UHGV virus genome: UHGV-0271208
Reading direction: 5' to 3' (one strand)
From: a virus
Length of the DNA: 25,010 nt
The stretch's first letter is position 1. Each line of letters opens with the position of its first letter. The notes below the pieces were generated by a model. That model was not told the origin of the DNA. It worked only from the letters and a program-made list of their open reading frames with translations, and ran no database searches. The position numbers and the translations under genes are program-made. Positions 21,710-25,010 of the stretch are shown piece after piece.

Positions 21710-22186
21710 TCATTTTGCGCGCTTCAGACAGCCATCTTCAGGTGCCGCGTTGAAAAGCTCTGCGGCCTTACGTAGCGTAAATGTTGCTATTTTTTTTCCG
21801 TCTACGTATGCATCGAATGTTTTAACTTCCATATCAGGGGTATCTGACCAAAAACCATACCAGTAACTATCACCCACAGAGGAACCGATAGAACTGATAG
21901 GATATTCATCATCACCAACTTTCAGCGTTATTTGTTCTTTTTTAGCATCAAATGACTCACCGCCAGGTTCTGTTTTCATGAGAGTGAGTAGTCGTGTTCC
22001 TACTTGATTGGGATCCGTATTATTAAATCCAACATCGCACTCAAATGTAAGCGTATAATTATCTTTGCTGGAAACAGCATAAGAACGAACACCATGAGTC
22101 TCGCCGGTTGACCATTTGCTTACATTTGCCATTGATGAAAATGGAGTAAGCAAAGCAAGAATTAGAAAAAATCGTTTGATGCGCAT
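21710..22186 (-). CDS. Secreted protein, sim-region-like (superimmunity candidate)
   Basis: 158-aa ORF with a signal peptide (MRIKRFFLILALLTPFSSMA); AT-rich upstream region; sits where the P1 sim genes lie relative to pmgC. Confidence 0.6.
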   Translation of the reverse strand: MRIKRFFLILALLTPFSSMANVSKWSTGETHGVRSYAVSSKDNYTLTFECDVGFNNTDPNQVGTRLLTLMKTEPGGESFDAKKEQITLKVGDDEYPISSIGSSVGDSYWYGFWSDTPDMEVKTFDAYVDGKKIATFTLRKAAELFNAAPEDGCLKRAK

Positions 22187-22247: not shown

Positions 22248-22895
22248 TTACCATTCATAGGGTAAATTAAGCGCTTTTAAACCTTGCTGAAAGGTATTAA
22301 GTGAGCCGTTCTTTTGTTGTTCCATTTGCTCGCGTGCCGCTTTCTCATACTGCTCCATCCGTTGGTTATACTCTTGCAATTCCTCTGGTGAGAGGTTTCC
22401 CATTGGGGAGTTTGTACCCGGCCCCCTGGCCCGCTCTTCAAGCGTACCCTGCACGTTTTGATGGCGCATTCCTGGGGCATTTCTGATTGAGTCAATGCCA
22501 TTTCTTCCAACGTCTTCTTTATTAACGGCATTGCTCGCCACCAGCACACCCCAGCTAGGAATAGCAAAATCAGGAGCGGTTTCGCATGCCTTTACCATAT
22601 AATCGAAAGAGCTTCGATTGATCTCGTTTGCGTCGGGATTTAACAGGCGAGAATATTGATATTTAGCATTTTCGTTGGTTGCGACTTTATACAGTTCTTG
22701 CTGCACCATCGCTTCAGAAAGTTTAAGGCGTTTCATATCTGACAGTAACTTCTTGCGCATGGATTCGTCTTGACTGACAGCAAAGCCGTAAACGTGCCCA
22801 AGGTATTTCGTATAATCGGTACAAATCTCCTTTACGCTTGATGCTGCATTAACAGTCTCAGCCATAAATAATAACGGTAGTAATAGTTTTCTCAT
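22248..22895 (-). CDS. Secreted protein, sim-region-like, sharing a motif with the Sit-like protein
   Basis: ORF 22248-22922; the likely start is ATG 22895 (GGTGAGG SD), giving a signal peptide MRKLLLPLLFMAETVNA. Its C-terminal part carries NAPGMRHQNVQGTLEERARGPGT, homologous to GRGMRREVVQGTLEERARGKGT in the Sit-like protein. Confidence 0.65.
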   Translation of the reverse strand: MRKLLLPLLFMAETVNAASSVKEICTDYTKYLGHVYGFAVSQDESMRKKLLSDMKRLKLSEAMVQQELYKVATNENAKYQYSRLLNPDANEINRSSFDYMVKACETAPDFAIPSWGVLVASNAVNKEDVGRNGIDSIRNAPGMRHQNVQGTLEERARGPGTNSPMGNLSPEELQEYNQRMEQYEKAAREQMEQQKNGSLNTFQQGLKALNLPYEW

Positions 22896-22991
22896 TATAA
22901 CCTCACCTGCCTTATAACTCATTTAGGGTACATATTTTCGCCTTTAAAAAAAAGAGGTTATTAGATCCAATTGTGTATTTATTAAGCATGT

Positions 22992-23008
22992 AATGCTCTA
23001 ATAAATTT
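22992..23008 (+). promoter_or_regulatory. P1 C1-repressor operator-like 17-mer (Op51-like)
   Basis: AATGCTCTAATAAATTT is one mismatch from the recalled C1 operator consensus ATTGCTCTAATAAATTT; it lies upstream of the c4/icd/ant region. Confidence 0.6.
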
Positions 23009-23204
23009 GTATTTTTAAGTCGCGAATGCTATCTTTTCGCATCATATTGACCTTTTAATCGTTCAGGCTTATAGTTCCGCCGTCGTAGCAAATTCTGCGA
23101 CCGGGTTTAGCAGCCTGAATGTTAGTGCGGACAACCGCAGATATCCGATATTGCGGTATTTTTGTGTCCGTAAAACCGCGTTACGCCCAAATTATGGTGG
23201 GGCG

Positions 23205-23275
23205 TGATGGGGAGGCTTCGGCCTGCTGGTTTCACTAACGCCAGTCTGCTAACCCCGTCACGTCCTGCCACCTGT
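23205..23275 (+). ncRNA. c4: c4-like antisense RNA (ImmI-type repressor of icd/ant translation); boundaries approximate
   Basis: CACTAAC (23233-23239) and CTGCTAAC (23246-23253) are complementary to GTTTAGCAG / GTTAGTG pairs at 23105-23127 and 23274-23311, the second overlapping the icd-like SD. This mirrors the P1 c4 a'/b' versus a1/b1 and a2/b2 layout. Confidence 0.4.
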
Positions 23276-23322
23276 TTAGCAGCGGGTAGCAGGTTGTTAA
23301 ACCTGTTAGTGAGGCCGTAACT

Positions 23323-23544
23323 ATGGTTAATGCCAATCCTTGCGCACGCCAAGAATTCATCTGGCGTTTCTATTCCTGTAAAAAACACCACTATCACTTC
23401 GTTATCGCAGCAACAGAAGACGAAGCACGCTCTCAATTGCCTGATGGCCCCTGCATTTTTACTGCCCGTTTTTCAACTAACTCGCGCAATTCACTTAGTT
23501 ACTGGAGCCTCCCCTTCTCTGCCGACGTTCAGGGGGGTTTATGA
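23323..23544 (+). CDS. icd: Icd-like small protein (73 aa) translationally coupled to ant
   Basis: 73-aa ORF with GAGG SD 8 nt upstream; its stop overlaps the ant start as ATGA. P1 icd is also 73 codons and overlaps ant. Confidence 0.5.
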   Translation: MVNANPCARQEFIWRFYSCKKHHYHFVIAATEDEARSQLPDGPCIFTARFSTNSRNSLSYWSLPFSADVQGGL

Positions 23545-24575
23545 AAACACCTCTCGTCACCCGTAATGAAATAGCCGAAGCGATCGCCTTGCATACAATC
23601 TGTATGCCGACACGGGAGATCCCCGGCGCAATTGCCAACTATTTCATGATAACCAGGCGTTTTTATACCCGAACAGATAAGGCTGTGATCAACAGGCTAC
23701 TGATAGCCGAGATCAGGGATTATTTGATTGAACAAGGACGTCTACGTTACGCAACAGTGGCAGCAGAAATGAGAAAGGAGGCACATAGAATGACCGGTAA
23801 TAATTTAAATGTTGAAAAACCAGCACCTGTTGCTTCAGCTACGCCAGCACCAGCCCTGAATGTCATCCCCAACACCGGAGACACAATCGACAGCCAAACA
23901 TTGTTGAAGATGGTCAATGAGGCACGGAAATTATGTAGCGAAAAACCAGTTCGCAACAATGATTTCATTGCCAGAGTTAAGGATGAGCTTGAAGGAGAAA
24001 CCTACGAAATTTTCGTAGGTCAAAAAAACGGCGCAGAAATAGATATTATAACCATGACCTACAAACAAGCCCTGCGAGTTGCCGCGCGCGAGTCAAAAGC
24101 GGTCCGCCGTTCGCTGATCGACAAACTGGAAGAATTACAGCAGGCAAACTCCCCTACCCCATCGATCCCCCAAACATTACCAGAAGCCCTACGCCTGGCT
24201 GCCGAGTTGGCAGAACAGAAAATGCATCTGGAACAACAGCTGGTGGCCGCAGCACCTAAAGTCGATTTTGCCGACCGGGTATCAGTGGCTAATGGAATCC
24301 TGATCGGTAACTTTGCAAAGGTCGTTGGACTTAAGCAAAACGCCCTTTTCTCATGGTTGCGCCAGAACGGCATTCTCATGGCTTTTGGTGCGCGCAAAAA
24401 CGTACCGCGCCAGCAGTACATTAACGCCGGGTATTTCACGGTGAAAGAAGTGGTGCTGGATGATGAAAATGGCTATCAGATACGGCTGACGCCACAATTA
24501 ACGGGTAAAGGCCAGCAGTGGTTAACTCGCAAGCTACTTGATGCTGGTTTGTTAAAACCAGTAGCAATAGGTTAA
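23541..24575 (+). CDS. ant: Phage antirepressor (Ant-like)
   Basis: 344-aa ORF whose C-terminal region (FADRVSVANGILIGNFAKVVGL...RKNVPRQQYINAGYFTVKEV...QIRLTPQLTGKGQQWLTRKL) resembles antirepressor C-terminal domains; sits downstream of the operator and c4-like elements. Confidence 0.8.
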   Translation: MKTPLVTRNEIAEAIALHTICMPTREIPGAIANYFMITRRFYTRTDKAVINRLLIAEIRDYLIEQGRLRYATVAAEMRKEAHRMTGNNLNVEKPAPVASATPAPALNVIPNTGDTIDSQTLLKMVNEARKLCSEKPVRNNDFIARVKDELEGETYEIFVGQKNGAEIDIITMTYKQALRVAARESKAVRRSLIDKLEELQQANSPTPSIPQTLPEALRLAAELAEQKMHLEQQLVAAAPKVDFADRVSVANGILIGNFAKVVGLKQNALFSWLRQNGILMAFGARKNVPRQQYINAGYFTVKEVVLDDENGYQIRLTPQLTGKGQQWLTRKLLDAGLLKPVAIG

Positions 24576-24581
24576 CAAAAG

Positions 24582-24614
24582 AAAAAAACCTGCCAGCAAA
24601 CTGGCAGGTTTCTG
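24582..24614 (+). terminator. Rho-independent terminator after ant
   Basis: Stem CCTGCCAG/CTGGCAGG at 24589-24608 with loop CAAA, followed by TTTCTG. Confidence 0.65.
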
Positions 24615-24653
24615 AGCAGATCGTCCAACCCGATCTGGATCGAGTCAGAAAAA

Positions 24654-24670
24654 TTTGCTCTAATAAATTT
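24654..24670 (+). promoter_or_regulatory. P1 C1-repressor operator-like 17-mer (Op53-like) upstream of kilA-like gene
   Basis: TTTGCTCTAATAAATTT is one mismatch from the consensus and 70 nt upstream of the ATG at 24740. The flanking approx. 30 bp is also similar to the 22992 site. Confidence 0.6.
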
Positions 24671-24739
24671 CGTTTTCTAAGTGCAAAGAATCACCATTTC
24701 GAGCTGGTGATTGAAGGTTGATGCAAATTTGGAGAAAAA

Positions 24740-25010
24740 ATGCAACAAACATTCAATGCGGATATGAATATATCAAACCTTCATCAAAATGTCGATCCTT
24801 CAACCACTCTGCCCGTTATTTGTGGTGTTGAAATTACGACCGACCGCGCTGGCCGTTACAACCTTAATGCTCTACACAGAGCGAGCGGACTCGGTGCCCA
24901 TAAAGCGCCAGCTCAATGGCTAAGAACGCTGTCAGCCAAACAGCTCATCGAAGAGCTTGAAAAAGAAACTATGCAGAATTGCATAGTTTCGTTCGAAGGC
25001 CGTGGCGGCG
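24740..25010 (+). CDS. kilA: KilA-N domain protein, 5' partial (runs off the window)
   Basis: ATG at 24740 with GGAGAAAAAA upstream; open to the window end, encoding MQQTFNADMNISNLHQNVDPSTTLPVICGVEITTDRAGRYNLNALHRASGLGAHKAPAQWLRTLSAKQLIEELEKE, which looks like a KilA-N domain. Confidence 0.65.
   Translation, partial: MQQTFNADMNISNLHQNVDPSTTLPVICGVEITTDRAGRYNLNALHRASGLGAHKAPAQWLRTLSAKQLIEELEKETMQNCIVSFEGRGG

Follow-up and report, generated by a model that had tools for sequence, protein, structure and literature searches.

In antisense regulation, the c4/icd/ant circuit has been a classic example since 1990, and it is represented in Rfam. Hartmann et al. are said to have reported in 1995, for c4 of the phages P1 and P7, that its 5′ end in P1 is made by RNase P. 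The P1 immI specificity set consists of the a alleles TTGACAG/CTGTCAA (target/antisense) and the b alleles GTTAGTG/CACTAAC, and the P7 set of the a alleles TTAGCAG/CTGCTAA and the b alleles GATTGTG/CACAATC. The roles of C4 and Ant have been described (PMC8198154), and a further, transcriptional control is exerted by C1 at the operator Op51 (PMC8198154; PMC8546580). A pairing model in which the elements a′ and b′ of c4 pair with the a1b1 and a2b2 sites was proposed for P1 and has been summarised by Weinberg et al. (2010, Additional file 1; PMC2864571).

The subject of the present analysis is a stretch of 25,010 nucleotides from the virus genome UHGV-0271208, here called the window, in which a preliminary description made from the sequence alone had proposed an ImmI-type c4 antisense RNA circuit upstream of icd/ant. 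This proposal is borne out by Rfam matches, by alignment with P1 and P7 and by the homology of Icd and Ant. The c4/icd/ant antisense switch is an already known system, of which the window copy represents a common though uncharacterised allele.

Identity and layout of the locus

Positions 22992-24575 of the window can be assigned with high confidence to the immI operon of a P1-like phage-plasmid, most likely working as in P1 and P7. A C1 operator is followed by two promoters, a1/b1, c4, a2/b2, icd and ant1/ant2 (Table 1), in the same order and with the same spacing as in P1 immI (NC_005856, 48140-49731) from the operator through ant1/ant2, and with the same architecture as in P7 immI (AF503408, 50853-52448). 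Alignment with P1/P7 immI, which the preliminary description had recommended as a check, gives about 97% mean column identity to the two annotated regions with the full set of elements in register, and the element coordinates in the window are a position-for-position transfer of the P1 annotation through this alignment. All coordinates of the preliminary description agree with the sequence of 22600-25010 and with the list of open reading frames. Directly shown here are the elements and their complementarity, together with the fold, the covariation and the homology. The sequence offers no argument against the assignment. When 22900-23600 is compared with phage records by megablast, P1, P7, RCS47, SJ46 and other P1-like phages match with 95-98% identity and D6 with 87%. 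Taken as a whole, the 25-kb window has matches in P1-like plasmids of E. coli and Salmonella. The element that carries the circuit may be defective.

Table 1. Features of the immI region in the window, in order of position
Feature	Position	Strand	Basis
C1 repressor operator Oc4 (Op51), AATGCTCTAATAAATTT	22992-23008	+	identical to annotated P1 operator, NC_005856 48140-48156 (alignment)
Promoter P2c4 (P51a), -10 TATCTT at 23030-23035	23006-23035	+	P1 annotation; invariant in window, P1 and P7
Promoter P1c4 (P51b), TTGACC, 17-nt spacer, TATAGT	23047-23075	+	P1 annotation via alignment
c4-a1b1 structured leader, two hairpins, a1 in second loop	23069-23121	+	RF03163, 55.5 bits against gathering score 46.7, model positions 1-53 of 53
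a1 site TTAGCAG (P7-type allele)	23107-23113	+	aligns with P1 a1 (48255-48261); complementary to a′
b1 site GTTAGTG (P1-type allele)	23121-23127	+	aligns with P1 b1; complementary to b′
Spacer hairpin with internal U-run (GCGGACAACCGCAG...UUGCGGUAUUUUUGUGUCCG), between b1 and c4	23126-23172	+	folding and haplotype pairing
Mature c4 antisense RNA, 77 nt	23196-23272	+	homology with P1 48343-48419
b′ element UCACUAAC (P1-type), c4 hairpin loop	23232-23239	+	unpaired in MFE and centroid folds
a′ element CUGCUAA (P7-type), c4 single-stranded junction	23246-23252	+	unpaired in MFE and centroid folds
a2 target TTAGCAG (P7-type), icd leader	23276-23282	+	aligns with P1 a2 (48423-48429)
b2 target GTTAGTGA (P1-type; RNA GUUAGUGA), overlaps icd Shine-Dalgarno	23305-23312	+	aligns with P1 b2 (48452-48459)
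icd, 73-aa cell-division inhibitor	23323-23544	+	96% identical to P1 Icd; NCBIfam NF033153 phage_ICD_like, 52.3 bits against 25
ant1, 344-aa antirepressor	23541-24575	+	90% identical to P1 Ant1, 93% to P7 Ant1
ant2, in-frame internal start, ATG at 23790 preceded by AAGGAGG	23790-24575	+	P1 ant2 start, 249 nt into ant1
GC-rich 13-bp hairpin after ant1, terminator-like	24584-24613	.	terminator scan call on minus strand; plus-strand T-run weaker

The operator and both promoters are identical in sequence to those of P1, and the elements downstream would be co-transcribed from these C1-controlled promoters; P51b is also recovered independently by a sigma-70 scan (10/12 matches). The 15-mer TGCTCTAATAAATTT, the core of the C1 operator, is found again on the plus strand at 24656-24670, some 70 nt before the start of kilA (24740). 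This second copy is the counterpart of Op53/OrepL, the operator that controls kilA-repL in P1, and the open reading frame from 24740 has a KilA-N domain, as in P1 kilA.

The a2/b2 sites follow c4 on its own strand, b2 lying over the icd ribosome-binding site, whose Shine-Dalgarno GAGG is at 23311-23314, and the second target copy, a1/b1, is placed upstream of c4 inside the structured leader. Ant1 contains the Pfam ANT/KilAC domain (PF03374, 106 bits). The 73-aa reading frame had been said to be coupled to ant by ATGA, and the start of ant1 does overlap the icd stop in this way at 23541-23544. With the internal ant2 start and the homology of Icd and Ant, this overlap is consistent with the coupling known from P1 and P7, and icd translation would by analogy be needed for ant expression.

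Fold of c4 RNA and its pairing elements

In a Rfam scan of the entire window, two families exceed the gathering score, RF01695 (C4) and RF03163 (c4-a1b1), both with full-length matches. The former matches 23190-23275 with 70 bits (gathering 45) over model positions 1-87 of 87. The window shares the family consensus three-helix structure, shows no difference from the two families and is a typical enterobacterial member. The predicted fold of c4 (minimum free energy -44.9 kcal/mol, z = -5.6) has three helices and a 3′ ACC overhang; it is composed of a long closing stem, a hairpin capped by UUCG, a second hairpin with b′ in its 9-nt loop, and a 7-nt single-stranded junction that holds a′. RF01695, the minimum free energy (MFE) fold and pairing across haplotypes agree on this tRNA-like form, in which a′ and b′ are both exposed in single-stranded parts. 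The acceptor-like stem from G23196 and the 3′ ACC overhang of the predicted fold are consistent with release by RNase P and accumulation of c4 as a 77-nt RNA.

The complementary elements on which the preliminary description was built are present as it stated, with a correction to the length of the a duplex. The b′ element pairs with b2 over up to 8 bp (23232-23239 with 23305-23312) and with b1 over 7 bp, and a′, which is covered by CTGCTAAC at 23246-23253, pairs with a2 and a1 over 7 bp each. The contiguous pairing of a′ with a2 is 7 bp (CUGCUAA/UUAGCAG, 23246-23252 with 23276-23282), not 8-9, because C stands opposite U at the next position.

Counts of these motifs by themselves are weakly significant. 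GTTTAGCAG occurs at 23105-23113 and 23274-23282 and nowhere else in the 25 kb (expected 0.21; two occurrences are reached in 4 of 100 shuffles), and GTTAGTG at 23121-23127 and 23305-23311, together with its reverse complement CACTAAC at 23233-23239, accounts for three of the seven matches in the window within 190 bp (expected 1.9 window-wide). Since each motif is 7-9 nt long and the enrichment is modest, the motifs might be taken for chance short repeats of no regulatory meaning. This has next to no probability and is refuted by the Rfam matches, by 95-97% identity to the characterised P1/P7 locus and by three-way covariation in 56 haplotypes; homology, Rfam matches and covariation, rather than motif counts, are the decisive evidence against chance.

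Covariation across related loci

Related loci were collected from IMG/VR by degenerate patterns, combined with the named phages, reduced to 56 distinct haplotypes of 230 nt and aligned (alignment A3). The c4 helices together with a′/a2 and b′/b2 have 99.1% of cells paired in the 56 haplotypes, compared with 34-50% in slid controls, and the c4 helices alone have 99.9-100%. Pairing of a′/a2 is complete (100%), with two pairs switching from CG/UA to UA/CG in 27 of the 56 haplotypes, and b′/b2 is paired in 95.3% of cells, with six of its eight pairs changed on both sides; double changes altogether affect eight pairs of a′/a2 and b′/b2. The upstream copies behave likewise: a1/a′ is paired at 100% with two pairs changed on both sides, and b1/b′ at 94.9% with six of seven pairs so changed. 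This covariation gives strong natural support to the intermolecular pairing model.

The same data bear on the nature of the c4 product. Some records annotate c4 as a protein, either as 'c4: CDS' (X15639) or as 'transcriptional regulator C4' (RCS47), and short open reading frames do overlap the region (23119-23238, 39 aa; 23204-23320, 38 aa), as would be expected if c4 encoded a small protein repressor and the complementary motifs were incidental. The P1 and P7 genome records, on the other hand, annotate c4 as misc_RNA. A protein-coding c4, to which hardly any probability can be given, is effectively refuted by the full-length match to the covariance model of an RNA family, by compensatory double substitutions that keep helices and intermolecular pairs, and by loop indels of 1-2 nt among related loci (A3), which would be intolerable for a reading frame.

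The spacer hairpin between b1 and c4 is nested, has conserved core stems and lies outside both Rfam models. Of its cells, 89% are paired in the 56 haplotypes, compared with 23-52% in slid controls, and compensatory changes are few; the fold of 23082-23195, which spans it, has z = -3.0. A leader hairpin that partly sequesters b2 was dropped as a candidate, since it is not conserved in other b types.

A mixed set of recognition elements

In the three-way alignment with P1 and P7, the window has the P7 allele at a1, a′ and a2 (TTAGCAG/CTGCTAA) and the P1 allele at b1, b′ and b2 (GTTAGTG/CACTAAC). The preliminary description had missed this combination of P7-type a and P1-type b elements. Compared with P1, to which the window is 95.2% identical over 23100-23330, the b sites are identical and the a sites carry TTAGCAG/CTGCTAA where P1 has TTGACAG/CTGTCAA; a few flanking SNPs follow P7. 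Compared with P7 (97.0% identity over the same positions), the a sites are identical, whereas the b sites differ by two bases each, GATTGTG/CACAATC being present in P7. To the left of the operator, the DNA agrees with P1 and not with P7. Neither specificity set is complete in the window, because a is the P7 allele in a P1-type b background and b is the P1 allele in a P7-type a background.

A single exchange between P1 and P7 was considered as the origin of the mosaic and rejected, as no clean blocks are seen among the flanking SNPs. Along the window DNA the alleles follow each other as P7, P1, P1, P7, P7, P1, an order that takes three crossovers or more, in gaps of 7, 6 and 22 nt.

Other P1-like elements (JL22, SJ46, D6 and 813R1/673R5) share this scaffold, with exchanges confined to the recognition elements. 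JL22 is the reciprocal mix of the window, a(P1)/b(P7); SJ46 is a(P7)/b(SJ46) and D6 is a(P1)/b(SJ46). The b alleles ACTTACG of SJ46 and D6 and ACGAATG of 813R1 are unlike that of the window, and in D6 the module is joined to a different antirepressor, Roi-like by its annotation.

The a(P7)/b(P1) combination is absent from the 24 matching phage records, among which the best match (97.0%) is of P7 type. It does occur in plasmids and genomes, window-type plasmids being, for example, NZ_CP009168.1 of E. coli 1303 and NZ_CP103660.1. Over 23100-23330, at least 99% identity is shown by 34 of 575 matching plasmid records, from E. coli, E. albertii, E. fergusonii and Salmonella, and by 34 of 550 matching records from complete E. 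coli genomes; the c4 region itself is present in 537 of 5426 complete E. coli genomes (about 10%). At least 14 IMG/VR loci are of the a(P7)/b(P1) type, and the exact c4 core is found in one GTDB species-representative genome, an E. coli strain.

A census of 157 c4 loci, a sample of the matches listed in which allele counts are lower bounds, shows how differently the two elements vary. Two a′ dinucleotides, CT and TC, occur among the 157 loci listed (2 of 16 possible), and there are at least 15 b′ sequences. All seven b types with at least four samples among these loci occur with both a alleles (Table 2). Despite being interleaved at three places with 6-22 nt between them, the elements a and b reassort freely (A3, 56 haplotypes). 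No description of such a × b combinations was found in the open literature; Lobocka 2004, Citron and Schuster 1992, and Gilcrease and Casjens 2018 may contain one.

Table 2. Combinations of a and b alleles among the 157 c4 loci listed (lower bounds)
b type	a = AG (P7 allele)	a = GA (P1 allele)
P7-b	at least 36	at least 13
P1-b	at least 15	at least 18
SJ46-b	at least 17	at least 6
813R1-b	at least 14	at least 3
GTACAT	at least 5	at least 9
AAATTGG	at least 4	at least 2
GTTCAA	at least 1	at least 3

Several variants of the module were observed during the census. Ten IMG/VR loci (L086-L095) form a divergent c4 subclass with a b′ loop longer by one base (7 nt compared with 6 in the window), a 7-nt b′ core (for example CCAATTT or CTAGAAC), a GGAG Shine-Dalgarno and another start of the downstream open reading frame (ATGGC...); their a and b elements are still matched to their own targets. 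On some P1-like contigs there are two or three c4-icd modules, and the b type differs from one module to the next, as in the 97-kb IMG/VR contig 2703718869_000013 (L057, L101 and L126) with P1-b, GTACAT-b and ACTTGT-b modules; the loci L035 and L127, and L060 and L099, are further cases. Complete E. coli genomes have up to five c4 places per genome, and the Rfam scan finds one module in the window.

Among the loci listed, disagreement between c4 and its targets is seen at one, L122 (4683-4912, minus strand), where b1 and b′ are of 813R1 type and b2 is of P1 type. Such a module, if real, would be repressible only in trans. Its interpretation as a natural recombination intermediate was rejected as unsafe: c4 lies about 140 nt from the contig end (b′ 166-171 nt), and another contig of the same source genome (L042) has a window-type module at the same offset. 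L122 is probably an assembly chimera across the repeated region.

Duplex energies and immunity specificity

By calculated duplex energies, the cognate pairing of the window (a′/a2 plus b′/b2) amounts to -21.1 kcal/mol, equal to that of the P1 and P7 cognates (about -21). Window c4 gives -17.1 kcal/mol on the P1 target and -14.2 kcal/mol on the P7 target, and the heteroimmune cross pairs of P1 and P7 give -9.0 and -10.5 kcal/mol. Since the same allele type stands at all three places of each element, the cognate pairing of the window is intact and partners of P1 or P7 are half matched. To judge from the sequence, the a(P7)/b(P1) mix may define an immunity specificity unlike those of both P1 and P7. 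A further reading, put forward tentatively and given slightly less than even probability, is that the window represents a natural a(P7)/b(P1) immI specificity absent from characterised phages and occupies one cell of a two-key combinatorial immunity code of P1-like phage-plasmids.

The mixed alleles might instead leave a circuit of the P1 kind without a new specificity, if b′/b2 over the ribosome-binding site suffices alone. The element would then be co-immune at immI with P1 and others sharing its b type, and a would merely tune kinetics. For this speaks that b′/b2 is the stronger of the two duplexes (-11.8 compared with -9.3 kcal/mol for a′/a2) and covers the Shine-Dalgarno, and that the energy of window c4 on the P1 target is much nearer to the cognate value than are the energies of the heteroimmune cross pairs. 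It does not readily account for the constancy of a, of which two alleles exist among the 157 loci listed, each matched perfectly at a1, a′ and a2 (100% paired); such matching is hard to explain unless an a mismatch is selected against. The perfect retention of the a allele at three sites suggests selection of this kind, and sufficiency of b alone is regarded as possible but rather doubtful, both as to the absence of a new specificity and as to co-immunity with P1.

Neighbouring genes

Upstream of the operator, divergent from the c4 promoters, lies an open reading frame of 224 aa (22248-22922, minus strand), whose first 50 residues are 92% identical to P1 SimA (52 aa). Beyond residue 50 it is unrelated to SimA and gives, as its only family match, a sub-threshold one to Pfam PTPlike_phytase. 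The sim genes of P1 are replaced in the window beyond simA codon 50; P1 simB and simC are absent from the sim region of the window, and P7 has other genes at that position. By these comparisons the superimmunity (sim) region is a hot-spot of replacement, with its end inside simA. A 158-aa open reading frame (21710-22186, minus strand), located between the sim-like gene and tail/morphogenesis genes, has a signal-peptide-like N-terminus (MRIKRFFLILALLTPFSSMA) and no match in Pfam or NCBIfam.

Proposed working of the switch

What is said here of c4 processing, of the block to translation, of coupling and of the immunity phenotype is carried over from experiments on P1 and P7. On this analogy, transcription from the C1-controlled promoters P51a and P51b would run through a1-b1, c4, a2-b2, icd and ant1/ant2, and the 77-nt c4 would be cut out of the operon transcript, with the 5′ end made by RNase P as is reported for P1. 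The tRNA-like three-helix RNA would leave a′ (CUGCUAA) free in a single-stranded junction and b′ (UCACUAAC) free in the loop of a hairpin, and these would pair in trans with a2 (UUAGCAG) and b2 (GUUAGUGA), respectively. Because b2 covers the icd Shine-Dalgarno, icd translation would be blocked, and because ant1 is presumably coupled translationally to icd through the ATGA overlap, antirepressor synthesis would also be switched off and lysogeny maintained. In P1, untranslated icd also leads to premature transcription termination. The upstream a1/b1 copies presumably serve as competing sites.

Implications

The system as such is nothing new, and the value of the locus in this respect is confirmatory, in that 56 natural haplotypes supply three-way covariation for the intermolecular pairing model. 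The a(P7)/b(P1) combination is a recurrent minority allele, and by combining two short recognition elements in different ways P1-like phage-plasmids appear to diversify their superinfection immunity. If both keys are needed for repression, the window element would, at immI, be heteroimmune to P1 and to P7 alike, and the family would constitute a natural library of orthogonal antisense regulators. Knowledge of the allele combinations could help to predict co-residence and superinfection of P1-like plasmids, many of which carry resistance genes, and could yield orthogonal antisense parts for engineering.
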